The notes beneath the pieces were generated by a model, which worked only from the letters and a program-made list of their open reading frames with translations, ran no database searches and was not told where the DNA came from. 64,000 nucleotides of DNA from Nitrospinota bacterium (lineage in GTDB: Bacteria; Nitrospinota_A; UBA7883; JACRGQ01), in assembly GCA_029881495.1 (NCBI GenBank), contig JAOUMJ010000013.1:3954-67953 (forward strand), written 5' to 3'. Every line of letters starts with the position of its first letter. Positions within the stretch are counted from its first letter, which is position 1. Below are positions 5,033 to 23,816 of the stretch, one piece after another. The translations under genes and the position numbers were made by a program.

Positions 5033-6547
5033 ATGAGTATATTTAAGATCAGATTTTCAAGAATAATAATATTTGGCCTGTTAATTTTCTATGTTGTATG
5101 TGGATATATATATTTGAATGTTGAAAATGCGCATATAGTTGATACATATAGCATGGTATTGTTATTTATCATTATAGCGATACTGATTTTATTCCAAGTT
5201 GTCCCTAGCAAGTATGACAGGCCTCTTTTCCTTTTATTTTCAATATTCGTTTTCCAGAAGTACTGTTTGTCTATTTTATTTATGCTTTTGCTTCCAGAAT
5301 ATGGAAGGAAGGAAATGGTAGAGGCATATCAGGTATATGACTCTGCGCAATTTAATAGCATTCTTGTATATTGCATATTCGGAACAATATTGCTTGGGTT
5401 AGGAACAAAGATAGGCGGAAGCATCGCAAATAAAAAAGTATTTTATGAAAATATAAACTTTCTGGACAGGTTAATGCTGAAAATTAACCCGGCCGCAATA
5501 TTAATGATATTTCTTGTCTTGTCTTCGTATTCTTTATATTTGAACTACTATTATAGTATTGGAAGGCATTATTCTGCTTCTGTTGACACCGGATTAAACT
5601 TCCTCAATATATTCAAAAACACTTCGTGGATATTTTACATATCATTGGCTTACGTATCTTTCTTTTGGGGGATCTTAAAGAGATACCAAAAAAAAATTGT
5701 CATATTGACAATTGTATTAATAATAGCAAGTTCTATCGCACAAGGATCAAGGTCATATATTTACGTTTATTTTATTTTGGCAATTTTAATAAAAACTGTT
5801 ACGGGTGGTGACTTCAAGGTGGCATTTAAAAAAACCATATTTGCGATCTTGATTATAATCACCGCAATAACAAGTTATCCCATAGCTTTAGGTATTAGAA
5901 ATGCCGGAAGAGCGGAAAACTATTCAGTCGCAAATTTAGCAAAGCAGATTAAATATGCCTATTTTGCTAATGAAAATCCATATGGTGTTATGACAATGGA
6001 TATTATTTCTAGATTAACAATGATCGAACCGTCATTTAGAATATTAAACGATTTGGAAGTTAACAGCGTTGAAGATAATGTTACAGTAATCGGTGATATT
6101 AAAAGGATTATTAATGGAATGGTGCCAGGCGACTTATTTTCTGACGTTATATATCATACCAGACTATATGCATATGTATATCAAGGTAATTATATTCGAT
6201 ACAACACTGTTGAATGGGGATACTATGAATATTGCTATGCTCTTTTCGGTACTTTCGGTGGCCTGATATTTGTTTTGTTTATTTCGGCAGTGCTCGGTAG
6301 TATTTGGAAGCTCGCACTAATTAGGAATTATGGGTTTAAATCAATTTTGTTGGTATTTTTCATCATGATTTATTGGACAATGTTAAAAAACATGGGTATG
6401 TCATATGTAGTTGCAAATGCTGTTACCGAGATATTTGTATTCTTGTTTTACCTCCCGGTTGCATGGCTTTTATCGCAATTAATGGGCAAGTATTATCTAC
6501 GCAAAAAGTTATTAATTGTAAATAAAGAGAGAGTCGGACAATTTTGA
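5033..6547 (+). CDS. Polytopic membrane protein, probable O-unit polymerase (Wzy-like)
   Basis: A 504-aa, very hydrophobic, AT-rich ORF with about 10-12 predicted TM segments and one larger loop. It sits among glycosyltransferases. Confidence 0.45.
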   Translation: MSIFKIRFSRIIIFGLLIFYVVCGYIYLNVENAHIVDTYSMVLLFIIIAILILFQVVPSKYDRPLFLLFSIFVFQKYCLSILFMLLLPEYGRKEMVEAYQVYDSAQFNSILVYCIFGTILLGLGTKIGGSIANKKVFYENINFLDRLMLKINPAAILMIFLVLSSYSLYLNYYYSIGRHYSASVDTGLNFLNIFKNTSWIFYISLAYVSFFWGILKRYQKKIVILTIVLIIASSIAQGSRSYIYVYFILAILIKTVTGGDFKVAFKKTIFAILIIITAITSYPIALGIRNAGRAENYSVANLAKQIKYAYFANENPYGVMTMDIISRLTMIEPSFRILNDLEVNSVEDNVTVIGDIKRIINGMVPGDLFSDVIYHTRLYAYVYQGNYIRYNTVEWGYYEYCYALFGTFGGLIFVLFISAVLGSIWKLALIRNYGFKSILLVFFIMIYWTMLKNMGMSYVVANAVTEIFVFLFYLPVAWLLSQLMGKYYLRKKLLIVNKERVGQF

Positions 6548-6691: not shown

Positions 6692-7897
6692 ATGAAAAGT
6701 AATATATTCGCGGTTTTTGGATCAGTTTTTGCTGGGCTATTTGTTTTTATAATATCAACATATAACCTGCAAGATTTTAACTCGGAGGACATAGGGTTAG
6801 GAATAAATACCCAAAGTAAATCGGGCTATAGAGATAGCAGATTGATCTCCAGTAATGTGATGGAAGATGTGAACGAGATAGTAGATAATTTTAGATATTA
6901 CAAGAATAATAATAAATACCATACAGCGCTGCTGCTAGGTGCATCACAGCTACACGCGATTAATGCGTTGCAAGAAAGTGATCTGCTGGCTGTCGAAGTG
7001 GCAAATTCGAGAGCTTTTGAAAATTCAGATAGCCTTGTCTATTTTCAACTGTCTAAACCAAATGCAAATTTTCATGATGTGCTAGGGATGTACCTAGCCT
7101 TTACGCTGGAGAATAATGAACATCCGGATTATTTGGTTTTGCCATTTGTATACGATGACTTGAGAGAAACGGGAATGCAGAATGATGTTATTAAGCATTT
7201 GCCAAACAATATACAGGAGATATTGCCATTTGAATCCGAAGGGACTAATCAAATTATTTCCTTGGCAAACCTAGAAAATAATGCGGTTTCAATTGGAACT
7301 GACGATCCGGTTAAGGATATTACGATGAGTAACTCGCCTCAGGATGCAGTGGAAAAATATATTATTCGGTCCCTTGAGGGATTTTCAAAGTCGTATGAAA
7401 AACGCGGTAATTTGCAATCGTGGATTGAGTTTCAAATGAAATACTATTTCAGGAAAACAAAAATAGGAATTAAAAGGATCTACTTGGCTAGCACAAATAA
7501 ACATTATATGCCGATAGAACATATACAAGATAAGATCTCGCATTGGAATATAAAAGCCTTTATATCTTTATTGAAAATTACCAATTTTAACGGGGTAAAG
7601 GTATTTGTTTACCGTCAACCTCATAGGCCGGATAAGCCTGAGTATTTTATGCATAACAGGAAGGAGTATGATCGATACTTTGCTTACATCTCTGAATTAT
7701 GTATTGAAAATTGCCAGGTAATCGGTGATTTTGAATTGCTGGTTCCAAGTGAATACTATGGATTAAATATTGATGGTTTTCCAGATCCATTTCATTTCCA
7801 GGGGATTGGCCATAAGTTGCTTGGAGAGAAAATTCACACTTCCTTGAAAGCTCAAATTCAGCTTTCCTCAATAAATAGACACGTAGTATCTCGATGA
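6692..7897 (+). CDS. Membrane-anchored DltD/AlgJ-like (SGNH-like) protein, putative acyltransferase partner of the downstream MBOAT
   Basis: It has an N-terminal TM anchor, an LLLGASQL block and a C-terminal DPFHFQGIGHKLL block of D-x-x-H type. It lies immediately upstream of an MBOAT gene, as in dltD-dltB or algJ-algI arrangements. Confidence 0.4.
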   Translation: MKSNIFAVFGSVFAGLFVFIISTYNLQDFNSEDIGLGINTQSKSGYRDSRLISSNVMEDVNEIVDNFRYYKNNNKYHTALLLGASQLHAINALQESDLLAVEVANSRAFENSDSLVYFQLSKPNANFHDVLGMYLAFTLENNEHPDYLVLPFVYDDLRETGMQNDVIKHLPNNIQEILPFESEGTNQIISLANLENNAVSIGTDDPVKDITMSNSPQDAVEKYIIRSLEGFSKSYEKRGNLQSWIEFQMKYYFRKTKIGIKRIYLASTNKHYMPIEHIQDKISHWNIKAFISLLKITNFNGVKVFVYRQPHRPDKPEYFMHNRKEYDRYFAYISELCIENCQVIGDFELLVPSEYYGLNIDGFPDPFHFQGIGHKLLGEKIHTSLKAQIQLSSINRHVVSR

Positions 7898-7922
7898 TTT
7901 TATATAAGGGCGCTGCAAATTA

Positions 7923-9383
7923 ATGTTGTTTAACAGTATAACCTACATCCTGTTTTTATCGTTTGCAGTGTTTGCTTACTGGAATTTACCGTATAGATAT
8001 AGGATTACCTTTCTGTCCGGTATGAGCCTTTTGTTTTATTCCTTTTGGAGAGTAGAGTTTTGTCTATTAATTATATTTTCTGCAGGCGTAGATTTTATAG
8101 CGTCGCGAAAAATATATGGTTCTGAAGACGAAAGAAAAAGGAAGATTTATCTTGCAATAAGTCTTGTTACCAACCTAGGTCTGTTAGCAATATTTAAATA
8201 CACATACTTTGTATATGATAATATAAGCTTCATTGCAACTCAGGCAAATTATAGATTCCCTTCGTTTGATTCTATTGCGATTAAGATAATTTTGCCTCTA
8301 GGAATATCTTTTTATACTTTTCAAACTATTAGTTATACGATTGATGTCTTTCGGAAAATAGTGAAACCAATAGACAATTTTAATTTGTTTCTTGCTTATG
8401 TCATTTTTTGGCCGCAATTAATTGCAGGTCCTATCTTACGATTCGGTGAGGTAGTTCCTCAGCTTGTTGAAGAAAAGAAGTTTATGCCAGAATTGGCAAG
8501 TTCTGGAATTGTTTTAATTATTGTAGGGTTATTCAAAAAGGTAGTTTTGGCTGACAATTTAGCGATATTTGTTGACGCAGGTTTTGAAGCATCTGTATCT
8601 CAATTGAATGCTTTGGATATATGGTTGCTGTCTTTTATGTTTGGATTTCAAATATATTTTGATTTTTCAGCATATTCTGACATTGCTATAGGCTCTGCAA
8701 GACTTTTAGGTATATATTTTCCAGATAATTTCAACTGGCCCTATATGGCAGTATCACCAAAGGAGTTCTGGAATAGATGGCATATTTCACTTTCTTCATG
8801 GGTTCGTGATTATCTGTATCTGCCTATAATTGGAGAGAAATTTAGAACAGACAGTAAGGGCGGAATAGGAGAGGCGGCAGTATCAAAAAAAAGAGACAGA
8901 AATAAAGCTCTGTTTGTAACTTGGATGTTAATGGGATTGTGGCATGGAGCAAATTGGACATTTGTGCTATGGGGTATATATCATGCCGTCTTTATCTTTA
9001 TATACCGAGTGATCAAGATATTCAATTTTCTTGAACGGAAACTTCCGGTCATTTCGTGGTTATTTACTATTTTTGTAGTTATGGCAGGCTGGATTTTGTT
9101 TAGATCTGAAAATATTTCAGAATCAGCTGCCATGTATTCAATATTGCTAAATCCCAATAACTATTCGCTCAACGGGCGAATCTTTCCACTCCAGGATTAT
9201 TTCATGGTATTTGTGTTGATATCCACCATGGTTATCATGTATGAAATATGGAAGAAAAACATAAATAGATATTTTGATTCAATTGGTTGGGTTTTCACTA
9301 GATACGCGGCAATTGCTGTAATGATATTTTTTATTGCTGTCTATCTTAAGCCGGTTCAACAATTTATCTATTTTCAATTTTAA
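7923..9383 (+). CDS. MBOAT-family membrane-bound O-acyltransferase (AlgI/DltB-like)
   Basis: Multi-TM protein with the MBOAT hallmark WNRWHISLSSWVRDYLYLPI, which contains the conserved histidine. Confidence 0.8.
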   Translation: MLFNSITYILFLSFAVFAYWNLPYRYRITFLSGMSLLFYSFWRVEFCLLIIFSAGVDFIASRKIYGSEDERKRKIYLAISLVTNLGLLAIFKYTYFVYDNISFIATQANYRFPSFDSIAIKIILPLGISFYTFQTISYTIDVFRKIVKPIDNFNLFLAYVIFWPQLIAGPILRFGEVVPQLVEEKKFMPELASSGIVLIIVGLFKKVVLADNLAIFVDAGFEASVSQLNALDIWLLSFMFGFQIYFDFSAYSDIAIGSARLLGIYFPDNFNWPYMAVSPKEFWNRWHISLSSWVRDYLYLPIIGEKFRTDSKGGIGEAAVSKKRDRNKALFVTWMLMGLWHGANWTFVLWGIYHAVFIFIYRVIKIFNFLERKLPVISWLFTIFVVMAGWILFRSENISESAAMYSILLNPNNYSLNGRIFPLQDYFMVFVLISTMVIMYEIWKKNINRYFDSIGWVFTRYAAIAVMIFFIAVYLKPVQQFIYFQF

Positions 9384-9391
9384 TATATCAT

Positions 9392-10315
9392 ATGGCTCCC
9401 AAAGTAAGTGTCATCATAAACTGTCTTAACAGCGAAAAATATCTCCAAGAGGCGATAGACTCCGTTTATTCCCAAACATGTACTGATTGGGAAATTATAT
9501 TGTGGGATAATGCTTCTACCGATAAAACAGCGCAGATAGCAAACAGTTACAAAGAAAAACTCAGGTACTATAGAAGTGAGGTAACCACCACGCTTGGCCA
9601 GGCAAGAAACAATGCTTTGGAAAAGGCAAACGGAGAATTGATAGCGTTTTTGGATAGTGACGACATCTGGATGCCTGAAAAGCTGGAGAAGCAATTACCA
9701 TTGTTTGGAAATCCAAAAGTCGGGATTGTTTATTCTGATGCGCTATATTTTAACAGTAATGGTTATGCCAAGAGACAGCATGGCAACAAGATTCCAAAAC
9801 AGGGAATGGTTTGGGAAGAACTATTGAAAAATTATTCAATTACATTATCGACTGCTGTGGTTAGACGTTCAGCTATAAACACTTTGAGTTATTGTTTCGA
9901 TGAATCATTCAATTTTATTGAGGAATATGATCTTTTTCTACGTTTAGCGAAGAACTGGAATGTCTGCTATTCGCCAGAAATGTTATGCAAGTACCGAATG
10001 CATGAAAAGAATTATTCGTTTACGCATACAGAATTATTTGTAAAAGAAAAAATGGTATTATTACAAAAATACAAGGAAATATACGAGGATTTTAAGGGAA
10101 AGAATTATGAAAGAATGGCCGTTATCATCATGCGTACTGTAGCAAAAAATCAATGGGCAAGAGGTGATAGTAAAGGGGCACGATCGATAATAAAAGAAGT
10201 TATGTTTAAAGATGCCAAATCAATGATGTTATATTTTGCCTCATTTGTTTCCTACAAAATATATTTAGCTCTTAGAAAATATTTGTCTAAGCGCCCATTT
10301 CTAATTAATGATTAA
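9392..10315 (+). CDS. Family 2 glycosyltransferase
   Basis: VSVIINCLN ... DSVYSQT ... WEIILWDNASTD ... FLDSDDIW: the GT-A fold with DxD motif. Confidence 0.8.
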   Translation: MAPKVSVIINCLNSEKYLQEAIDSVYSQTCTDWEIILWDNASTDKTAQIANSYKEKLRYYRSEVTTTLGQARNNALEKANGELIAFLDSDDIWMPEKLEKQLPLFGNPKVGIVYSDALYFNSNGYAKRQHGNKIPKQGMVWEELLKNYSITLSTAVVRRSAINTLSYCFDESFNFIEEYDLFLRLAKNWNVCYSPEMLCKYRMHEKNYSFTHTELFVKEKMVLLQKYKEIYEDFKGKNYERMAVIIMRTVAKNQWARGDSKGARSIIKEVMFKDAKSMMLYFASFVSYKIYLALRKYLSKRPFLIND

Positions 10316-10460
10316 GTTGACTAGGCGTTTATGGTTCAGCGTATCTGGTATCATACTTGATTTTTAATCCTGGAACATTTACTATTCACGCGCTCGTGAA
10401 TAGAGTATTTATTGCGTTATAACCGGTTATATATCGATTGGGTATTGGAGAGATGTTTAT

Positions 10461-11420
10461 ATGAAGCAAATGATGATGGCAATGATACCTATATTTGACG
10501 TCGCCCTGTATTTGCTTATATATCCAGCAGCAATATTGTTGAAAATTGTTAGGCGCATTGGAGTGCAGCGTCTTCCTTTTTGCAAAAAGGCATTGCTACA
10601 TGTAGGAGTATTCCCAATCAGGAATCACTTTTATGAACCGTTGTTTGATCATAGGCAGTTAAAAAATTCACTGTTTCAGGACAGAGAACTCCCAGGGATA
10701 GATTTCAATGTTGGGGCGCAATTGGATCTATTGAATAGCTTCAATTACAGCGAAGAATTGAAGAAATTCCCTTTAGATGCAAAGGGGGAATTAAGTTATT
10801 TTTATAAAAATGGCAATTTTGAATTTGGTGATGCCGAATATTGGTACAGTCTGATTAGAATTAAAAAGCCGCGAAGAATAATTGAAATAGGGAGTGGATC
10901 CTCTACTTTGATGGCAATAGCCGCAGTAAAAAAGAATCAACAGGAAATGCCAAGCTATAAATGTGATCATATATGCATTGAACCATTTGGAGCGCCTTGG
11001 TTGGAAAAAACCGGTGTGTCGGTTGTGCGGAAAAAAGTAGAGGATGTTGGCAAGGATATATTTCTCGACCTAAAGGAAGATGACATACTATTTATCGATT
11101 CATCACATATTATCAGGCCTCAGGGTGACGTTCTGTTTGAATATTTAGAGTTGCTTCCAATACTTAATAAAGGAGTAATAGTTCACTTTCACGACATATT
11201 TTCACCAAAGGACTACCCTGAGAATTGGGTAGTTAATAAAGTGCATTTTTGGAATGAGCAGTATTTGTTGGAAGCGTTTTTAACTATGAACAGTGATTGG
11301 GAAGTGATTTGCAGCTTAAATTATCTTCGCCACCACCATTTTGAAGAACTAAAAAGCAGGTGTCCTTTTTTGACTGTCTCGACAGAGCCTGGCTCTTTCT
11401 ATATTAGAAAGAAAAATTGA
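10461..11420 (+). CDS. Putative SAM-dependent methyltransferase (TylF/CmcI-like fold), membrane-anchored
   Basis: IIEIGSGSSTL is a glycine-rich motif, and the protein also has DSSH and HFHD blocks. The N-terminus is hydrophobic. The assignment is tentative. Confidence 0.4.
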   Translation: MKQMMMAMIPIFDVALYLLIYPAAILLKIVRRIGVQRLPFCKKALLHVGVFPIRNHFYEPLFDHRQLKNSLFQDRELPGIDFNVGAQLDLLNSFNYSEELKKFPLDAKGELSYFYKNGNFEFGDAEYWYSLIRIKKPRRIIEIGSGSSTLMAIAAVKKNQQEMPSYKCDHICIEPFGAPWLEKTGVSVVRKKVEDVGKDIFLDLKEDDILFIDSSHIIRPQGDVLFEYLELLPILNKGVIVHFHDIFSPKDYPENWVVNKVHFWNEQYLLEAFLTMNSDWEVICSLNYLRHHHFEELKSRCPFLTVSTEPGSFYIRKKN

Positions 11421-11530
11421 CATTAGCAGATATATATATTTCTGAATAAATCTAATTATAGATGTTTCAGATACATGGATCGCAAAATTCATTTTTTTGC
11501 GATTAAATAAATCTATAGCGGAAAAATAAA

Positions 11531-12724
11531 ATGAACAAGAAATTAAAAATTCTAATATACGAACCGTATCCCTTTGGGCAAATATCTGGAAATTTAAGAT
11601 GTCAGTCCTACGTTATGAAGTTTATAGATAGAGAAAAATGTGATCTCTTGGTTGTCTCGCCTTTTGAGAGTGAATTTACAGAATATGTATTAAAAAAGGA
11701 TCATGGATTGGTAATTTTAAAACCGCCTTCCAGGCTAGGGAGGTACGGGAAAAAAAATCTGAAAGATAGTATTTACGGTAAACTATTAACGTTATTTGAC
11801 ATATTAAAATATAATGTTTCGCTCTATAAGCTCTTAAAAAAAGAAAAAGTCGATGCGCTTTACTGTAACGGCATGAGAGCACTCTTAACATGTTTTATAT
11901 CGGCAAAGCTTGCCAGAGTGCCAATTTTATTATTTGTAAAATCCGAACTTCAGACTAAATATATTGATCCGATAGGTTTTTTTGTGGCCGACAGGATTCT
12001 GTTTTTTTGTGAACAAAATAAAAACGATAAATACCCTTTTCTTGTAAAACTGTTTAATGAGAAAATCGGGATACTGAAAATTGGTATGGATATCGATGAA
12101 ATTGAGGAAGTGTTAAAAAAAGACAAGACTGAATTGAAAAAAGAATTGTGTATTAATGATAAAGATGTAAATATAATTTACTTAGGACAGATATATTCCC
12201 CCAAAGGTGTACACTTTCTACTTGAAGCGATGGGGACTCTTTTACCAAATTACCCAGAATTGAAGCTCTATGTTGTCGGGCACCATGTGCTTGAAGAGTA
12301 TGCAGGTTATCAATTGGAACTCGAAGAAATAGTTGATAAATACAAAATGAAAGATAGAGTTATTTTTACTGGGTGGAGAACAGATTCATTAGAAATAGTA
12401 TCTTTAATGGATATAATGATTCATCCTTCGCTTAAAGAAGGTTTTGGAAGATCTGTGTTAGAGGCAATGGCTATGGGCAAGATGGTTATTGCCTCTGCGG
12501 TTGGTGGTTTAAGAGAAGCTGTTCATGATGGTGAAAACGGCTACCTTGTCAAACCTGGTGATTCAAAAGGGATTGCCGAAAAATTAAAGCACGCTTTAGA
12601 TAATAAAGAAATCATTAAAAAGTATGGTGAAAAAGCTAAGGAAACTGTATATTCTGAGTACATCGCGGAAGAGTATATTTCAGGCTGGCAATGCGAAATT
12701 GAAAAGATGGTCAACAGGAAATAG
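11531..12724 (+). CDS. Family 4 (GT-B) glycosyltransferase
   Basis: The C-terminal EGFGRSVLEAMAMGKMVIAS...GENGYLV block is the GT1/GT4 signature. Confidence 0.8.
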   Translation: MNKKLKILIYEPYPFGQISGNLRCQSYVMKFIDREKCDLLVVSPFESEFTEYVLKKDHGLVILKPPSRLGRYGKKNLKDSIYGKLLTLFDILKYNVSLYKLLKKEKVDALYCNGMRALLTCFISAKLARVPILLFVKSELQTKYIDPIGFFVADRILFFCEQNKNDKYPFLVKLFNEKIGILKIGMDIDEIEEVLKKDKTELKKELCINDKDVNIIYLGQIYSPKGVHFLLEAMGTLLPNYPELKLYVVGHHVLEEYAGYQLELEEIVDKYKMKDRVIFTGWRTDSLEIVSLMDIMIHPSLKEGFGRSVLEAMAMGKMVIASAVGGLREAVHDGENGYLVKPGDSKGIAEKLKHALDNKEIIKKYGEKAKETVYSEYIAEEYISGWQCEIEKMVNRK

Positions 12725-12772
12725 TCCTGATTTAAAAACTTGCTACAAACAGATAAGGGTTGCATTTTTAAA

Positions 12773-13804
12773 ATGAAAATCAATTCAGATACAAAGAAAA
12801 ATCTTATTCTTCTATTCGTTACAATAATAATAACTCTAGTAATGTTTGAAGGTTTAATTCGGATAGTTTATGGCAATGTGAAAATATGGCAATTTCCACA
12901 GATGAGGCACATATCAACATCATATGGATATAAACTTGAACCAAATCAGACAGGAACATATACAACTGATTTCCCTATTACTACAAATTCATGGGGGTTT
13001 AGAGATGATGAGTGGAAAGTACCTAAGCCAAAAGGTGTAAAAAGGATTATGACACTGGGAGACTCTCTCACATTCGGGAATGGTGCTAAATATGAAGAGA
13101 TATTTCCTACTTTGTTGGAAAACAAACTGAAAAAGTTAAACAGCCAAGTAGAAGTGCTTAATACCTCTGCGATAGGATGGACGACATATAACGAAGTAGA
13201 TTTTTTTACCGAAGAAGGGATATCATACGAGCCTGATATTCTGATATTGTGCTTTTTTCAAAATGATTATGTCACTAGGCCGGAAAATGTTCAGATAACG
13301 CTTGATGACGATGGCAGAAGGGACGCAAGGCCTGAATGGTTGCAGTTTTTGCCATACAAATATATATTTTTGTTAAAAAGGTCTGCACTTATATCCTTTG
13401 TTAGGCTGCGACTAGGCGCATTTTTAAATGCAGATAAAAATCCAATAGACATAAGCAGTAAATCAACATTGGATTCACGGCAGGATATTACTGATACATA
13501 TTCTTATATCGCAGATTTGAAAGAATATTGTGATAAAAATAAAATTAAGCTTATTGTAGTTTATATTCCTGCAATTTCAAGATTTGCATTTCCAAAAGAT
13601 AAATCGATTTTACATTTGCACATGGCCGAAAATATGAAAAAAAATGGAATTACATTTTTTGATTTGGCGGAGCCCTTTTGGAATGAAAAAAAACCATTTA
13701 AATTGTACATGTACCCATGGGATAATCATTTGAACGCAAAAGGGCACAAACTAATCGCAGACCAACTATATACTATTTCAGTTAATGCACTTGAAGAAAG
13801 GTAA
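12773..13804 (+). CDS. SGNH/GDSL-family hydrolase or acyl-esterase, signal-anchored
   Basis: It has GDSLTFGNG (block I), a C-terminal DNHLNAKGH (block V, D-x-x-H) and an N-terminal TM segment. An alternative start lies at 12740. Confidence 0.65.
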   Translation: MKINSDTKKNLILLFVTIIITLVMFEGLIRIVYGNVKIWQFPQMRHISTSYGYKLEPNQTGTYTTDFPITTNSWGFRDDEWKVPKPKGVKRIMTLGDSLTFGNGAKYEEIFPTLLENKLKKLNSQVEVLNTSAIGWTTYNEVDFFTEEGISYEPDILILCFFQNDYVTRPENVQITLDDDGRRDARPEWLQFLPYKYIFLLKRSALISFVRLRLGAFLNADKNPIDISSKSTLDSRQDITDTYSYIADLKEYCDKNKIKLIVVYIPAISRFAFPKDKSILHLHMAENMKKNGITFFDLAEPFWNEKKPFKLYMYPWDNHLNAKGHKLIADQLYTISVNALEER

Positions 13805-14609: not shown

Positions 14610-14812
14610 TTGGGTATATGGCTGAAATCCATGCAATATGCATGGATGGTATATTTATTTTACAGGCAATAATTATGGAAAGAATGAAGGGGATTTCAAT
14701 CCAGTTGAATAAACGGATTCGCAGTACGGATAAATATTCTGCTATAGAAAGACACTCACTCAGATAGCCGATAGTATGAATAATCAATCCTGAAAAGCAC
14801 AAAATTGGAAAA

Positions 14813-15889
14813 ATGTTGGATAATCTGTCAGTTCAGAAATACATAACCAGTTTTATAGAAAAGACGTTTTCGTCAAACGGAAGAAACACGGCTACTATTC
14901 AAGTTGGAGAAATAGAGATAAACGATTTTTCCATATGTTTCTGGGTGGAAATAGAACCCGAAAGCGGGAAATATGGGTTGTATGTAAAGCTTCCGAAGGA
15001 GGAAGTGGAAAAAACGGAAATGTGGAGGATCAACGAATCGGATAGAGAAATGGGTGAAAAGGAGTATGAGAGTCTTCAATTTCTTGATAAGAATTGGATC
15101 GAAGACGAGGATTCCGTAAAATTCATAAAACCGGTAGCTTATCTGCAAAAGTATAATGCCATTGTTACTGAACGGATTTATGCCAAGGGGATCCTGCCGG
15201 AATTCAGAGCATTGGATACGCTTAAGAGAATTATTCCATTTGTTTCTACCGAAAAATTTAAATATTACCTGGCAAATGTAGGGAGATCGTTACGCAAGTA
15301 TCACGACAGGGTAGGGGAACCGGTTGAATACGATCTTGCTAATACGGTAACGAAAATCAAAACTAGGCTTAAGTCCTTGGATATTCCATCCACTACTGGC
15401 AACGATACGAATGAATGGCACGTTCTTCTGGCCAAAATCTCTGGCCTGACGGAAAAAACGGTCATGACAAAAACATTAAAAGGGTTAGATATCAGAAATG
15501 TATTTATCGGTGATAGTGGGAAAATATATTTGCTTGATCCGGGTAGACTTAAAAACGATTGCCGGGAGGCCGATCTTGCAAGGTTTCTTGTCACGATCAG
15601 GATCCTTTACTGGGGGACGCTGAGATTTTTTCTTCGCTTGAAACCTTTAGAGGAATTTGAAAAATTCTTTCTCAAAGGATATTACGGAAGTGACAGCCAT
15701 GGCGGAATTTTGCTAAGAGTTTTTATTATTAAAGAGCTTGTAAAACACTGGGATATGGCATATTTTGCACTCTCCCTGAAATCATGGCCTAAACCGATCA
15801 AATATATTTTGAAAAACATCTATATTAATGGATATTATGAAAGTGAAATTTCAGCCCATTTCAGGAGATTGAAGGATGAAATTTCCTGA
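14813..15889 (+). CDS. Hypothetical protein, possibly kinase-like fold
   Basis: The LDIRNVFIGDSGKIYLLDPGRL region loosely resembles a catalytic-loop plus DFG-like arrangement of phosphotransferases. The match is weak. Confidence 0.3.
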   Translation: MLDNLSVQKYITSFIEKTFSSNGRNTATIQVGEIEINDFSICFWVEIEPESGKYGLYVKLPKEEVEKTEMWRINESDREMGEKEYESLQFLDKNWIEDEDSVKFIKPVAYLQKYNAIVTERIYAKGILPEFRALDTLKRIIPFVSTEKFKYYLANVGRSLRKYHDRVGEPVEYDLANTVTKIKTRLKSLDIPSTTGNDTNEWHVLLAKISGLTEKTVMTKTLKGLDIRNVFIGDSGKIYLLDPGRLKNDCREADLARFLVTIRILYWGTLRFFLRLKPLEEFEKFFLKGYYGSDSHGGILLRVFIIKELVKHWDMAYFALSLKSWPKPIKYILKNIYINGYYESEISAHFRRLKDEIS

Positions 15890-15931: not shown

Positions 15932-17395
15932 GTGAATACAACCTACATCATAGATAAGGAAATTGGCTACGGAACCAGACCACCATTTAATCCGGATAAA
16001 AAATATCCGGAAATTGGTGGAAATATTGGAGAAGGCATTGGAGACAATCGTATATACGACATATTGAGAAGGATATTTGTATACAAAAAAATGGATGAAG
16101 CCAATTTCGGAACCGTGAACTGGAACCCTTTTGGTGAATTCATCAAGCCTGGGGATCGAGTGGTGCTAAAGCCAAACTGGGTAACGGAAATAAGAGGGCG
16201 GAAGTATTACCAGGAGCAGTTGATTACGCATCCATCTGTAATTAGGGTGGTACTGGATTATGTGATAATTGCCTTAAAGGGGAAGGGCGATATAACCATA
16301 TGTGACGCGCCAATGCAATATTCATCGTTCAGCGCGCTGGTGAAGGAGAGCTATCTTGAAGAGATTCTAAATAATTATTCCCTGCCTAAAGAAATAAGTC
16401 TCAAATATATGGACCTCAGGCAGGAGGAAGTGGAGCTGGATGAAACTCGGTCGCAAATAATAAAAAGAACGCGGCTTGAAGGCGATCCTTTGGGATATAC
16501 CGAGATTGATCTGGGAGATAAGTCGTACCTGGAGGAATTGTGTATTGAAAACACCAACATAAGGTTTGCTGTAAGCGACTACGATGAAGAAATTACAAGA
16601 ACAAATCAGAGGAGAGGGATTCACAAATATCTGATTCCGAACACAATATTAAGTTCAGACGTTTTCATAAACCTACCAAAAATGAAAACTCACAGAAGAA
16701 CCGGCATTACCGGTGCGATGAAGAATCTAATCGGAATTAACGGCTCCAAGGCATATCTTGTGCATTATTCCAAAGGGAGTCCGAACGAAATGGGTGACGA
16801 GTACCAGAATTATACGACGATGAAGGGGATTGCATCCTACGTTGATTACAAACTGAAGCCCTATATACCGAACGTGATCTGGAAAATAATCAGATATTTC
16901 TGGATGATATATAAAACAAGCGTGCAAAAGAAGGCCAAATCCGGACAGTCGACCGACCTGTCATTTATGACAAGTAATGGTTGTTGGCCTGGTAATAGAA
17001 CTATCTGGAGAACCATATTCGATCTGAACATGATACTTTTATTAGCGGATAAAAGTGGTGAATTAAAGACAACCAGACAGAGAAAATACCTGGGAATTGT
17101 TGATGGAATTGTCGGTATGGAGGGGGAAGGGCCTATAAAAGGGGACCCGCGAGATACCGGGACGATAATCATGGGTGACGATCCCGTTTCGTTGGATGCC
17201 TGCATGGCAGATCTGATGGGCTTCGATATAGAGAAAATCCCTTCAGTCAGCAATGTTCGAAACATAAACAAGAAGTTCAGTTTTTCGTCATACAATATGA
17301 AAAATGACTATCAGAATGTAACTAATGATAAAATATCACGACCATTTAACCCGCCTATGACATGGAAAGGTCATCTGGAAAAAAATAGTGAATAA
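15932..17395 (+). CDS. DUF362 domain-containing protein
   Basis: Starts at a GTG after an AAGGAG RBS. The motif KTHRRTGITGAMKNLIG matches the DUF362 K-T-H ... K-N-L-x-G signature, and a conserved CDAP cysteine lies upstream. Confidence 0.55.
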   Translation: MNTTYIIDKEIGYGTRPPFNPDKKYPEIGGNIGEGIGDNRIYDILRRIFVYKKMDEANFGTVNWNPFGEFIKPGDRVVLKPNWVTEIRGRKYYQEQLITHPSVIRVVLDYVIIALKGKGDITICDAPMQYSSFSALVKESYLEEILNNYSLPKEISLKYMDLRQEEVELDETRSQIIKRTRLEGDPLGYTEIDLGDKSYLEELCIENTNIRFAVSDYDEEITRTNQRRGIHKYLIPNTILSSDVFINLPKMKTHRRTGITGAMKNLIGINGSKAYLVHYSKGSPNEMGDEYQNYTTMKGIASYVDYKLKPYIPNVIWKIIRYFWMIYKTSVQKKAKSGQSTDLSFMTSNGCWPGNRTIWRTIFDLNMILLLADKSGELKTTRQRKYLGIVDGIVGMEGEGPIKGDPRDTGTIIMGDDPVSLDACMADLMGFDIEKIPSVSNVRNINKKFSFSSYNMKNDYQNVTNDKISRPFNPPMTWKGHLEKNSE

Positions 17396-18755
17396 AGAAA
17401 TTATCTATAACTATTCGCCATATTGGCTGAGAAACTTGTGGATTTCCCTGTTTGGATATAAGCTGGCAAAAGAGCGGTATGGGAAGTCGTATTTGGAGCA
17501 TTTCGATCTCTATAAAAAAATACAGTTCGACTCTGTTGAGCAGATACATGAAAGACAAAACGGAATGTTCAGGGAATTTGTCTCATTTGCCGCTAGCAAT
17601 TCCCCTTTCTACAGGGAATTTTATAAAGATTGCAATCTTCCAGGAAATATATCTGAGATATCTAACCTGCCTATCCTGACAAAGGAGCTACTTAGGAAAA
17701 ATGATGAAAAGTTAAGAACTGGGGAGTTGGGAAGCGACAAGATATGCATACATACTAGCGGTACAACAGGGACACCGTTAACGTACTACTTCGCTAAAGA
17801 AGATTTTCAGGCGAGAATCGCGCTTCTCGATAGTTACAAGGAGTGGTTCGGTGTAAAAAGGGGCGATAAAAGGGCATCCTTCACGGGAAGGATAATAAAA
17901 CCGGCAAACAGCAGATCAAAAAAGTTCTGGCAGATGAATTTCATGATAAATCAGAGGCTGTATTCCACGTATCATTTGTCGAAGGACAACTTAAAATATT
18001 ACATTGAGGATCTGGAAAAATATCAGCCGGTCTTCATGGATGGATACCCATCGGCCTTTCTTGTTCTGGCAAAATACTTTCTCGCCGGAAATACAAAGCC
18101 TGGGTTCAGGCCAAAGGTTATTTTCACTACAGCGGAAACGATAAAGCCATATGAAAAGGAATTGATAGAAAAGGCTTTCGGTTGCCCGTTGAGCGATCAC
18201 CATGGCTCTTCAGAAGGAGCGCCGGTTACTGCGCAATGCGAATATGGCAAGTATCATTTTTTGTCATTTCTTGGCGTTATGGAAGTGTTGGATGAGAACA
18301 ACAGGCCGGCAAATGCCGGGAGAGCGGTGCTTACATGCTTTAATACGAGGTTCATGCCGTTGATAAGGTACGACATCGGTGATTACGTGAAGCTCTCTGA
18401 TGAAAAATCGTGTAGTTGCGGGCGGAATTATCCGATTGTTGAAAGCGTTCTCGGAAGGGAAGAAGATTATATCGTGACCACGGAAAGAGGGAAGGTTGGA
18501 AGGCTTGACCCTATTTTTAAAAACAGCCCTTCTACAATTATTAAAACGCAGATTGTACAAAATGAAATTGACAAAGTTGATGTGCTGTACGTTCCTGACG
18601 AACTCAAATTCAAGAGCGAACATCTGGATGTGATAAAGGATCAGCTTCTCGCAAGAATAGGCTCAAACACTGAAGTACGTTTTAACAAGGTTATGGATAT
18701 TCCCGTGGGTAAAAACGGGAAATTCAAGGCAGTTATCAGCAATGTTGGCAAGTAA
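17388..18755 (+). CDS. Adenylate-forming enzyme, phenylacetate-CoA ligase / CapK / F390-synthetase-like
   Basis: It has the AMP-binding P-loop IHTSGTTGTP and an overall length and pattern like PaaK/CapK proteins of capsule loci. The GTG start overlaps the upstream stop. Confidence 0.7.
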   Translation: MNKEIIYNYSPYWLRNLWISLFGYKLAKERYGKSYLEHFDLYKKIQFDSVEQIHERQNGMFREFVSFAASNSPFYREFYKDCNLPGNISEISNLPILTKELLRKNDEKLRTGELGSDKICIHTSGTTGTPLTYYFAKEDFQARIALLDSYKEWFGVKRGDKRASFTGRIIKPANSRSKKFWQMNFMINQRLYSTYHLSKDNLKYYIEDLEKYQPVFMDGYPSAFLVLAKYFLAGNTKPGFRPKVIFTTAETIKPYEKELIEKAFGCPLSDHHGSSEGAPVTAQCEYGKYHFLSFLGVMEVLDENNRPANAGRAVLTCFNTRFMPLIRYDIGDYVKLSDEKSCSCGRNYPIVESVLGREEDYIVTTERGKVGRLDPIFKNSPSTIIKTQIVQNEIDKVDVLYVPDELKFKSEHLDVIKDQLLARIGSNTEVRFNKVMDIPVGKNGKFKAVISNVGK

Positions 18756-21596: not shown

Positions 21597-21751
21597 CGGG
21601 ATATTTTTTTATCGTAAACGCTTTTATTCAAACTTCAAATGTCATCCGGGTTTTCGGTGGCATCTCAGGGTGGCAATATGAGTGTATTGACAGGCGGAAA
21701 CGCCAGTAGGAAAGGGTAAATAGTAATTTGGAAATTATTTGGGATAGAAAG

Positions 21752-22834
21752 ATGTTTGGCAAAAAACTGCTGGAAAAATTCGTTTCGGAACTGGGACCGC
21801 TGGTAAATCCGGAAAATGAAACGCACAAGATAGATATAAGCGGGATATCTGCCAAGGATCTTCTTAAGATGCTAGAACTGATGTTAATTATCCGTTATAC
21901 GGAAGAGGCAATAGGAGACCTTATCAAGAGCGGTTACGCAAAATGCCCCTGCCATCTGGGAATAGGGCAGGAAGCCGTTGCGGTAGGGATTTCTCATCAC
22001 CTCACCGGTGAGGACAAGATATTCAGCGGGCATCGTTCGCATCCGCATTTCCTCGCGCTGGGAACGGAAGTTGACCTGCTTTTATGTGAAGTACTTGGGA
22101 AGGAGAACGGCAGTTCGCACGGTATGGGTGGGTCTCAGCATCTTGTTGCTTTGGACAAGGGCTTTGTCGGTTCGGTTCCTATTGTGGCAGGAACTATACC
22201 TCTGGCCGTTGGGGCCGCTCTCGCTACCAAATTCGACGGGAAAGGGAATATTGCTGTTGCATATTTCGGAGACGGTGCCTCTGAAGAGGGTGGACTGCAT
22301 GAATCACTGAATTTTGCCTCGAAGATGTCGCTACCAGTTCTATTCGTTTGCGAGAACAACCTCTTCGCAAGTCATCTCGACATAAGCTACCGTCAACCAA
22401 GCGACAGGATATCTCGCTTTGCCGATGCTCATAAGGTTCCTAGCATAGTAGTGGACGGTAATGACGTTGCCGCCGTTTCAAAAGCGGCTGGACAATTCAT
22501 TTCGAACTGCAGGCAGGGAAAGGGGCCCGGTTTTATAGAGGCGATAACCTACAGATGGAAAGGGCATGTCGGCTATGAAGAAAATATCGACGTAGGTTTG
22601 AGAAGGAAAGAAAAAGATTTGATAGCCTGGAAAAAGCGCGACCCGATAATGCGATTGAAGGAAGCACTGATAGCAGATGGAAAATTAACCGCGCAGGAAT
22701 ATCAGAGTATTCAGGGAAAACAAAAGATGAAAGTGGACAAGGCTGTTGTAAAAGCAAAGGAATCGAACTATCCGGAGGACTCGGCACTTCTCGATATGGT
22801 GTATGTGAACAGGAATAAAAATGACGGGAAATAA
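21752..22834 (+). CDS. TPP-dependent 2-oxoacid/acetoin dehydrogenase E1 component, alpha subunit
   Basis: YFGDGASEEGGLHESLNFAS...VLFVCENNLFA is the TPP-binding GDG...N motif of E1 alpha. An alternative TTG start lies at 21728. Confidence 0.8.
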   Translation: MFGKKLLEKFVSELGPLVNPENETHKIDISGISAKDLLKMLELMLIIRYTEEAIGDLIKSGYAKCPCHLGIGQEAVAVGISHHLTGEDKIFSGHRSHPHFLALGTEVDLLLCEVLGKENGSSHGMGGSQHLVALDKGFVGSVPIVAGTIPLAVGAALATKFDGKGNIAVAYFGDGASEEGGLHESLNFASKMSLPVLFVCENNLFASHLDISYRQPSDRISRFADAHKVPSIVVDGNDVAAVSKAAGQFISNCRQGKGPGFIEAITYRWKGHVGYEENIDVGLRRKEKDLIAWKKRDPIMRLKEALIADGKLTAQEYQSIQGKQKMKVDKAVVKAKESNYPEDSALLDMVYVNRNKNDGK

Positions 22835-23816
22835 GGTGAACTACGGCTCAGCTATAAGGGAAGGATTTGCCTACCTGCTAAAAAATTATCCTGAGGTCTT
22901 TATATTGGGGCAAGGGCTCTGGAGTCCGTGGTATGTCGGGAATTCAATGACCGGACTTGAAAAGGAATTCGGCGAGGAAAAGATAATTGATACGCCCGTG
23001 TCGGAACTTGCATGTACGGGAGCTGCCATCGGCGCATCGCTGTGTGGCTACAGGCCTGTTGTAGTCCATCCGAGGATGGATTTCATGATCCTTGCAGCAG
23101 ATCAAATAGTGAATCAGGCAGCCAAGTGGAGGCACATGCTTGGTGGGCAATCATCACCTTCAGTAACTATACGCGCTATTATCAACCGTGGAGGAGAGCA
23201 GGGAGCACAGCATTCACAGGCGCTTCATTCATGGTTTGCGCACATACCCGGACTTCGGGTGGTAATGCCGACTACGGTACAGGATGCAAGGGATCTCTTG
23301 ATCGCCTCGGTGCTCTGCGACGATCCGGTCATGTATATCGACGACAGGTGGTTGTACGACCTGGAGGACGATCTCCCCGAACCCAAAGAACTGGTTCTTG
23401 CTGATGTATATCCGCAAATACTTAAAGACGGGAAGGATGTGACAATTGTTGCGGCAGGTTATTCGGTCCGTATGGCGCTTGAAGCTGCAGCTGAGCTTGA
23501 GCAAAAGGGTGTTGCCGCGGAAGTGATCGACTTGCGTGTTATAAACCCGCTGGATGAAACCGTAATGGTTAACTCCGTGAAAAAAACCGGCCGACTTTTG
23601 GCTGTAGACGGTGGATGGCAGACATGCGGTCTGGCAGGAGAGATCATCGCATGCATCATGGAAAAGATAGACGTGTCAAAGATGAAATCCTCTCCTGGGA
23701 GAATAACATTGCCCCATGCTCCGGCGCCGACAAGCAAGCCGCTTGAGGAGATTTACTATCCGAAGGCCAGTGCGATAACAGATATGGCGATGAAACAGGT
23801 ACAAAGGCGGATATAA
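22821..23816 (+). CDS. TPP-dependent dehydrogenase E1 component, beta subunit (transketolase-like Pyr and C-terminal domains)
   Basis: Typical E1 beta architecture. Its start overlaps the alpha-subunit stop, suggesting translational coupling. Confidence 0.8.
   Translation: MTGNKVNYGSAIREGFAYLLKNYPEVFILGQGLWSPWYVGNSMTGLEKEFGEEKIIDTPVSELACTGAAIGASLCGYRPVVVHPRMDFMILAADQIVNQAAKWRHMLGGQSSPSVTIRAIINRGGEQGAQHSQALHSWFAHIPGLRVVMPTTVQDARDLLIASVLCDDPVMYIDDRWLYDLEDDLPEPKELVLADVYPQILKDGKDVTIVAAGYSVRMALEAAAELEQKGVAAEVIDLRVINPLDETVMVNSVKKTGRLLAVDGGWQTCGLAGEIIACIMEKIDVSKMKSSPGRITLPHAPAPTSKPLEEIYYPKASAITDMAMKQVQRRI

Follow-up and report, generated by a model that had tools for sequence, protein, structure and literature searches.

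A membrane-anchored SGNH-fold protein and its adjacent MBOAT as a likely two-gene O-acylation pair in a Nitrospinota polysaccharide island

Pairs of an MBOAT and an SGNH protein acylate bacterial surface polymers, and the acyl groups alter recognition by phages, the immune system and enzymes. To our knowledge, the mechanism has been worked out for two such pairs only, Dlt and PatAB, and few types of SGNH partner have been named. Here we analyze two neighboring genes in a 64-kb stretch of a Nitrospinota metagenome-assembled genome (contig JAOUMJ010000013.1; the whole stretch is called the window below). The open reading frame (ORF) at 6692 is followed by an MBOAT gene and encodes a protein designated X, identical to NCBI protein OEY64_07195 from a contig of 100.8 kb. 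X and the MBOAT are likely to be a self-contained two-protein O-acyltransferase of the PatA/PatB type that acts on a glycan outside the cytoplasm. Its substrate is most likely the polysaccharide of the island around the pair, and the added groups are most likely acetyl.

Anderson et al. defined FXYXXF as an "acyl shuttle" motif (PMC12148441). In the Dlt system the motif is carried by the microprotein DltX, and DltB, which lacks it, needs DltX and DltC (PMC12148441). In all other bacterial MBOAT pathways FXYXXF is fused to the MBOAT on two additional transmembrane helices, and these pathways have neither a carrier protein nor DltX (PMC12148441). PatA was shown experimentally to auto-acetylate the motif tyrosine (Tyr445) from acetyl-CoA, and PatB acetylates its glycan substrate from the acetyl-peptide; the NgPatA motif is FIYANF (PMC12148441). 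The alginate (AlgI/AlgJ/AlgF/AlgX) and cellulose (WssH/WssI/WssF/WssG) systems also combine an MBOAT with a membrane-anchored SGNH-like protein for periplasmic exopolysaccharide modification (PMC4148444, PMC12148441). The X-MBOAT pair resembles PatA/PatB in its proposed function and DltD most in the structure of its SGNH protein, and is not of the AlgJ/AlgX type. Its features are as follows.

6692..7897, + strand: X, membrane-anchored SGNH-fold protein of 401 aa (AlphaFold2 (AF2) model, Foldseek)
6698..6763, + strand: N-terminal transmembrane anchor of X, aa 3-24, SNIFAVFGSVFAGLFVFIISTY (hydropathy, AF2 helix, translation)
6932..6952, + strand: block I of X, LLGASQL, aa 81-87, with the putative nucleophile Ser85 (conservation)
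7052..7066, + strand: SKPNA motif of X (S121 and N124, both at least 90% conserved in 141 homologues)
7154..7168, + strand: DDLRE motif of X (D155, D156, R158 and E159), after strand 147-152
7784..7795, + strand: block V of X, D365-P-F-H368, with the triad's putative acid and base
7923..9383, + strand: MBOAT of 486 aa, PatA/AlgI-type rather than DltB-type (PF03062)
8781..8783, + strand: His287 of the MBOAT (WHISL), aligned with the first conserved His of DltB (8jem_A)
8943..8945, + strand: His341 of the MBOAT (WHGA), aligned with GFWHG of DltB
9363..9380, + strand: C-terminal hexapeptide FIYFQF of the MBOAT, aa 481-486 (Tyr483), the FXYXXF acyl-shuttle motif

The MBOAT gene starts 25 nucleotides (nt) 3' of X, and its product matches PF03062 (E = 3.9e-19) and the DltB structures 8jem and 6bug (E ~1e-30). 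The DltB equivalog model TIGR04091 is its only NCBIfam match and scores 164 bits against a cut-off of 375. Alignment coordinates place His341 at about residue 336 of 6bug, which we take to be the catalytic His336 of S. thermophilus DltB, and His341 is the predicted equivalent of the universally conserved MBOAT catalytic histidine. Beyond the DltB-like core there are two extra hydrophobic segments (aa 420-438 and 457-475) followed by the terminal FIYFQF. This is the layout of PatA from the Neisseria and Campylobacter peptidoglycan O-acetyltransferases, an MBOAT with extra C-terminal helices that end in FXYXXF. Among 75 reading frames of MBOAT orthologues linked to X, 72 have a FIYFQF-type motif at the C-terminus, and in 70 of the 75 it is exactly FIYFQF.

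O-acylation from acyl-CoA is favored over D-alanylation because the MBOAT, unlike DltB, bears its own FXYXXF. With the motif on the MBOAT itself no carrier protein is needed, which explains why none was found. The six frames of the 64-kb window contain no PROSITE PS00012 site, AcpP and DltC probes gave no tblastn match below E 0.3 in the window, and no carrier protein is present among all ORFs of at least 30 aa inspected in 4.8-21 kb. The pair shares the lack of a carrier protein and of a microprotein with PatA/PatB (PMC12148441) and differs from Dlt in having no dltA, dltC or dltX. The initial annotation of this DNA had also noted the missing carrier-protein gene, and had read the two genes as a layout for O-acetylation or D-alanylation; the FIYFQF tail favors the former as O-acylation from acyl-CoA, and the latter is not supported.

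X has a single hydrophobic segment (aa 5-23, hydropathy peak 2.34) that coincides with an AF2 helix at aa 2-24, and this one N-terminal anchor suggests that the rest of the protein is extracytoplasmic. No match to X was found in Pfam, NCBIfam or PDB sequences in single-sequence searches, and neither PF13472 nor DUF1574 matched even at E <= 1. A word-indexed search recovered only four relatives; an exhaustive profile search recovered 1140 family representatives clustered at 50% identity, 607 of them with E <= 1e-30. Their hosts include Bacteroidota, Planctomycetota, Alpha-, Gamma- and Deltaproteobacteria-type lineages, SAR11, Myxococcota, Nitrospinota and further groups. Wherever a source record names the protein, with one exception, the name is hypothetical or uncharacterized, and this includes the member from the cultured Magnetococcus marinus MC-1. 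No description of the family was found in the searchable literature on its motifs or on "DltD-like" proteins.

The family signatures are GNSQLHAIN, SxPNA, DDxRE and DFMHFxxGH, the first being the consensus of the serine block. In 141 homologues Ser85 and R158 are invariant, and conservation reaches at least 90% for Gly83, D155, D156 and E159. It also reaches at least 90% for D365 and H368, both of which show no variation in a 114-sequence alignment. The anchor, LLGASQL and the D-x-x-H block had all been read correctly from the 6692 ORF; the serine block had been called degenerate, and the invariance of Ser85 identifies it as a family signature and not a decayed motif. SKPNA may be the oxyanion-hole block, judging by its position in the modeled SGNH fold. 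A Pfam scan of 114 family members taken singly gave 40 weak matches to Lipase_GDSL_2 (PF13472; best 9e-7), 22 to Lipase_GDSL, 8 to DUF1574 (PF07611; below threshold, like those to PF13472) and 4 to DUF459, all of which are SGNH-clan families. The DltD family is absent among the 25 families listed for these 114 members, and neither they nor X of the window match the ALGX family.

An AF2 model of X built from 5 sequences was poor (pLDDT 65.8, the predicted local distance difference test) and was replaced by a 141-sequence model with pLDDT 87.9 and a predicted template-modeling score (pTM) of 0.87. The model consists of the transmembrane helix, a small beta subdomain, alternating beta-strand/helix units in which the motifs are located, an insert of helices (aa 154-299) and, at the C-terminus, a long helix. 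A Foldseek search of the PDB placed DltD structures on top (7dxm_A, then 3bma, 6pfx and 6o93), followed by GDSL esterases, with PatB (7tjb) at rank 7. The best full-length match was 7dxm_A (E = 1.7e-4, template-modeling (TM) score 0.43, 379 aligned columns). Each of the 14 matches that reached significance (E <= 0.001) has the SGNH fold, the top 50 include neither AlgX nor AlgJ structures, and the five-sequence model also puts DltD structures on top. A fold other than SGNH was not what the comparison returned.

The relationship to DltD stops at the fold. The 141-sequence profile found nothing relevant among PDB sequences and no DltD chain, and when hhalign compared the X family with four DltD sequences, which a B. 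subtilis DltD bait had retrieved from PDB alignments, the probability was 1.2% over a 51-column local match. Membership of X in the DltD family is rejected on this value and on the absent DltD Pfam match. Thus the earlier description of the 6692 product as DltD-like holds for the fold and fails for the family, and the model indicates that X is an SGNH-fold protein with a DltD-like architecture outside the DltD family. X shares with DltD of the Gram-positive DltABCDX system a similar length, an N-terminal membrane anchor, the pairing with a DltB-like MBOAT and motifs of similar style, G(N/A)SQL compared with GSSEL and D(F/P)(M/F)HFQxxGH compared with DTIHLGWKGW. The systems differ in that the partner of X bears its own shuttle motif and the hosts of X are mostly Gram-negative phyla.

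PatB provides the other comparison. Both PatB and X are SGNH partners in a two-gene system, possibly anchored by one N-terminal helix, with Ser and Asp-x-x-His in the canonical order. Unlike PatB, X is ~400 aa long with the large insert at aa 154-299, is nearer to DltD than to PatB 7tjb (TM normalized to the query, 0.43 compared with 0.28) and has no sequence-level similarity to PatB. The SGNH gene comes first and the MBOAT second, and the pair lies in a heteropolysaccharide cluster instead of a peptidoglycan O-acetylation locus. AlgJ and AlgX (PF16822) are circularly permuted with D-x-H before the serine block (PMC4148444), whereas X is canonical, with Ser85 first and D365-x-x-H368 last. Unlike the Alg and Wss systems, the X-MBOAT pair has no conserved AlgF- or WssF/G-like third or fourth gene.

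The pairing of X with the MBOAT is obligate. Of the 126 confirmed X loci found by scanning one genome per GTDB species, 80 were retained. Their hosts are Bacteroidota, Planctomycetota, Alpha-, Beta- and Gammaproteobacteria (SAR11 among them), Myxococcota, Desulfobacterota-type lineages, Leptospirillia and Chloroflexota, and one is a metagenome-assembled genome labeled Methanosarcinales. A full-length MBOAT orthologue (41-55% identity) lies directly 3' of X in 78 of the 80, with its start between about 10 nt before and about 180 nt past the point where the X match ends, which extends the earlier observation of an AlgI/DltB-type MBOAT with a conserved His directly after the 6692 ORF. The two exceptions are a locus where the contig ends just after X and another where the MBOAT is upstream of X. 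Three short metagenome contigs have the same X-MBOAT junction. Chance is ruled out by the E-values and by a gene order that recurs in 78 of 80 genomes. The pair has no conserved third member in the X loci. Apparent X-MBOAT fusion ORFs in three loci (L058, L064 and L069) were rejected as artefacts of simple ORF calling in GC-rich DNA, where the MBOAT frame is open upstream. Pfam gave no partner for the second MBOAT paralogues in L025 and L069.

Gene context was assessed in the 62 long X loci. Glycan-biosynthesis genes are present in 54 of these, and genes of at least two kinds in 46. Longer proteins with a C-terminal X domain also exist, after a GT4 glycosyltransferase (P0013 and P0098) or after an S37/S28 peptidase-like domain (P0044), and are either true fusions or gene-calling errors. 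Carbamoyltransferase genes (PF02543 and PF16861) occur in 40 of the 80 loci, no more than two genes from the pair in 29. Loci with such genes next to the match at ~8001-10600 include L006, L008, L009, L014, L021, L025, L032, L035, L040, L047, L048, L051, L054, L062, L063 and L079-L081. A small GT2 gene often follows the carbamoyltransferase, and the window has no carbamoyltransferase. This linkage may reflect a recurrent larger decoration module or may just be common in glycan clusters.

By analogy with PatA/PatB and DltB/X/D, the MBOAT would take an acyl-CoA, probably acetyl-CoA, at the cytoplasmic face, and His341 with His287 would acylate the MBOAT's own Tyr483 in the FIYFQF tail on the outer face of the membrane. 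The acyl-tyrosine tail would then swing to the active site of X, which would be held by its N-terminal helix with the SGNH domain in the periplasm. Ser85, activated by His368 and Asp365, would accept the acyl group, and X would pass it to a glycan hydroxyl. The polysaccharide of the island is the most likely acceptor because the pair runs in the same direction as the glycan genes and ends 8 nt before a GT2 gene, and because of the glycan genes in 54 of 62 long loci and the apparent GT4-X fusions. In the window, the pair is accompanied by an NDP-sugar pathway, a GT2, two GT4s, methyltransferases and a Bac_transf initiating transferase. The initial observation of an acylation pair is confirmed, and its interpretation is supported as essentially right with the refinements given here.

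Several results weigh against this assignment. The structural likeness of X to DltD is modest and undetectable by profile-profile comparison. X of the window is a divergent member: its score on the family profile is 233 bits, compared with >350 for most members, and its residue 84, which is Asn in at least 90% of the family, is Ala. In 8 of the 62 long loci the pair lies outside a recognizable glycan cluster, so the acceptor need not be the product of the neighboring genes. One of the eight (L005) is the closest genome relative of X of the window. The choice of acetyl is an assumption made only since the characterized FXYXXF MBOAT uses acetyl-CoA. Transferase and esterase activities of X would look the same in its sequence, and the function proposed for the family is a prediction from sequence, modeled structure and analogy.

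The surroundings of the pair in four of these eight loci are varied. In L005 (7920-10614) it is located between lexA/bifunctional nuclease and a histidine kinase, with CapB/CapC-like poly-gamma-glutamate genes 3 kb away. Its neighbors in L016 and L033 are housekeeping genes, and in L030 it adjoins a Wzy_C O-antigen-ligase-like gene and a lipid A acyltransferase. The pair is regarded as a self-contained unit because it also sits among unrelated genes.

The genes at ~0.1-24 kb of the window are all on the + strand and form a polysaccharide biosynthesis island. The G+C content is 32-36% across ~5-14 kb and 45-52% further along. Pfam and NCBIfam scans assigned the following gene order around the pair.

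651, + strand: methyltransferase (Pfam/NCBIfam)
1432, + strand: DegT aminotransferase (Pfam/NCBIfam)
2522, + strand: sugar nucleotidyltransferase (Pfam/NCBIfam)
3346, + strand: NDP-sugar 4,6-dehydratase (Pfam/NCBIfam)
4422, + strand: 3,5-epimerase-like protein (Pfam/NCBIfam)
5033..6547, + strand: multi-pass membrane protein of 504 aa, upstream of X (no Pfam match)
9392..10315, + strand: GT2 glycosyltransferase, 8 nt after the MBOAT (PF00535, E = 2e-34)
10461, + strand: Methyltransf_24 (Pfam/NCBIfam)
11531, + strand: GT4 (Pfam/NCBIfam)
12773..13804, + strand: second membrane-anchored SGNH/GDSL protein, 343 aa (PF13472)
13944, + strand: methyltransferase (Pfam/NCBIfam)
14813-15889, + strand: 358-aa protein without a Pfam match
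15932, + strand: DUF362 protein, 487 aa (Pfam/NCBIfam)
17388..18755, + strand: PaaK/F390-type ("CapK-like") adenylate-forming enzyme (NCBIfam, all matches below cut-off)
18817, + strand: GT4 (Pfam/NCBIfam)
19928, + strand: Bac_transf initiating transferase (Pfam/NCBIfam)
after 19928: aldo-keto reductase, E1 dehydrogenase/transketolase-like pair, HAD phosphatase

The 5033..6547 product could be a Wzy-like polymerase, a suggestion that comes from its hydrophobic sequence and its position. The GT2 gene probably shares a transcription unit with the MBOAT. Two terminator-like hairpins with 9-bp stems lie exactly in intergenic gaps, one 3' of GT2 (10382-10403) and the other after the 13944 methyltransferase (14627-14647); 12 terminator-like sites were observed overall compared with 5.4 expected. 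A promoter scan returned 42 sites versus 49 expected, which is not above chance.

The second SGNH protein scores 46.6 bits on PF13472 against a cut-off of 32.9. Its start is likelier to be the ATG at 12773 than the TTG at 12740, and the resulting 343 aa are identical to the NCBI-annotated protein. GDSL is encoded at 13058-13069 and D-N-H, within W-D-N-H, at 13721-13729. The initial annotation had correctly recognized a canonical GDSL protein, but its second block is D-x-H and not DxxH. The D-x-H spacing is invariant in 33 homologues, with the canonical GDS first; G96, S98, D165, D317 and H319 (P0213 numbering) are invariant in the same set and N164 is at least 90% conserved. The initial annotation had listed the protein beside the pair as a separate SGNH esterase. 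It is not a conserved part of the module: a homologue is near the X-MBOAT pair in only 1 of 80 X loci, and no MBOAT was found within 7 kb of its close homologues (44-50% identity). It was rejected on these grounds as an MBOAT partner or second relay enzyme, and it is probably an independent glycan esterase or transferase. The hairpin at 10382-10403 may place its gene in a different transcription unit from the pair. Homologues in L085-L090 have a conserved neighborhood of a GT2 or other glycosyltransferase, the SGNH gene, a GT4, asparagine synthase (AsnB), ATP-sulfurylase and APS kinase, which hints at sulfated glycans at these loci.

The CapK-like ligase at 17388 had been put forward as a possible supplier of the activated donor. 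Only 3 of the 80 X loci have a homologue, and the data do not support linking the enzyme to the X-MBOAT module. The DUF362 gene at 15932 overlaps the ligase gene by 8 nt, an arrangement that suggests a translationally coupled pair of a DUF362 protein and an adenylate-forming enzyme within the island.

Other roles can be considered for the same two genes. The pair could be an O-acyltransferase whose acceptor is not the island polysaccharide but a conserved envelope polymer, such as peptidoglycan, the lipopolysaccharide core or lipid A, or another common glycan. Such an acceptor would fit the 41-55% identity of the MBOAT between distant phyla and its nearly constant FIYFQF tail, and also the loci, 8 of the 62 long ones, where the pair is among unrelated genes (L005, L016, L033 and L030 are four of them). 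We nevertheless regard this acceptor as unlikely, given the glycan genes near the pair in the great majority of long loci, the apparent GT4-X fusion proteins and the position of the window's pair inside an AT-rich, co-directional glycan cluster just upstream of GT2. Furthermore, the pair had no Ape-type O-acetyl-peptidoglycan esterase gene next to it in any locus inspected, although the window does have a gene for an SGNH esterase with a membrane anchor 3.4 kb downstream.

That second SGNH gene matters to a different proposal, in which X is a hydrolase (a de-O-acylase or an editing or recycling esterase) and the final transfer is made by the MBOAT or by the 12773 protein in an AlgJ-to-AlgX style relay. 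Alginate acetylation employs two SGNH-like proteins, AlgJ and AlgX (PMC4148444), and the window likewise encodes, besides X, an SGNH protein that has a membrane anchor and a complete Ser/Asp/His set. SGNH proteins are mostly esterases, and so are most of the Foldseek matches to X that follow DltD. The rarity of 12773-type proteins near the pair, the MBOAT-free surroundings of their close homologues and, as weak evidence, the hairpin between the two units all count against the relay. The strict 1:1 pairing of X with an FXYXXF MBOAT and no third conserved gene is the PatA/PatB layout (PMC12148441), and we judge a hydrolytic role improbable, slightly more so than a conserved acceptor. A Dlt-like aminoacylation, or an unusual acylation in which the CapK-like enzyme activates an acid for the MBOAT and X, is very hard to reconcile with the data. 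The window encodes no carrier protein, the MBOAT has the fused FXYXXF that DltB lacks (PMC12148441) and falls far below the DltB model cut-off, X fails the hhalign comparison with DltD, and the ligase gene is rarely linked to X and overlaps the DUF362 gene in another part of the island. These outweigh the facts that DltD is the closest solved structure to X, that the sole NCBIfam match of the MBOAT is the DltB model, and that an adenylate-forming enzyme is encoded 8 kb downstream, an enzyme that might provide an acyl-CoA other than acetyl-CoA if it is indeed a CoA ligase.

With X and the MBOAT taken as a two-protein O-acyltransferase, the novelty is an unnamed, widespread SGNH partner family that joins a DltD-like fold with a PatA-type MBOAT; the mechanism itself is known, and the principle of MBOAT-SGNH acylation is unchanged by it. 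On balance, we lean toward seeing X as a previously unrecognized SGNH family without a Pfam model, of DltD-like architecture, that pairs obligately with a single MBOAT clade whose FIYFQF hardly varies. The two genes would then be a mobile, self-sufficient acylation cassette with its own acceptor specificity, linked in about half of the genomes to carbamoyltransferase genes, and a sixth bacterial MBOAT-SGNH type beside Dlt, PatAB, PatA1B1, AlgIJFX and WssHIFG/CcsHI. Naming the family would improve the annotation of roughly a thousand protein clusters now called hypothetical. It would also point to O-acylated glycans in SAR11, Nitrospinota and similar groups, and the shuttle model with its acyl-tyrosine could then be tested in Gram-negative and environmental lineages on a simple system of two genes.

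Two further sets of genes in the island are recorded here. The products of 122-658 and 14813-15889 have no Pfam match and by eye have motifs similar to those of aminoglycoside/choline-kinase-like phosphotransferases (for example HGDLSIDNV...IDWE in the 122-658 product); phosphorylation or another modification of the glycan is a possible role. The island also contains, at 21728-23816, an E1-dehydrogenase alpha-like gene and a transketolase-like beta gene, which may add a two-carbon branch to a sugar; in L089 and L090 a similar split transketolase pair adjoins the homologue of the 12773 SGNH gene.

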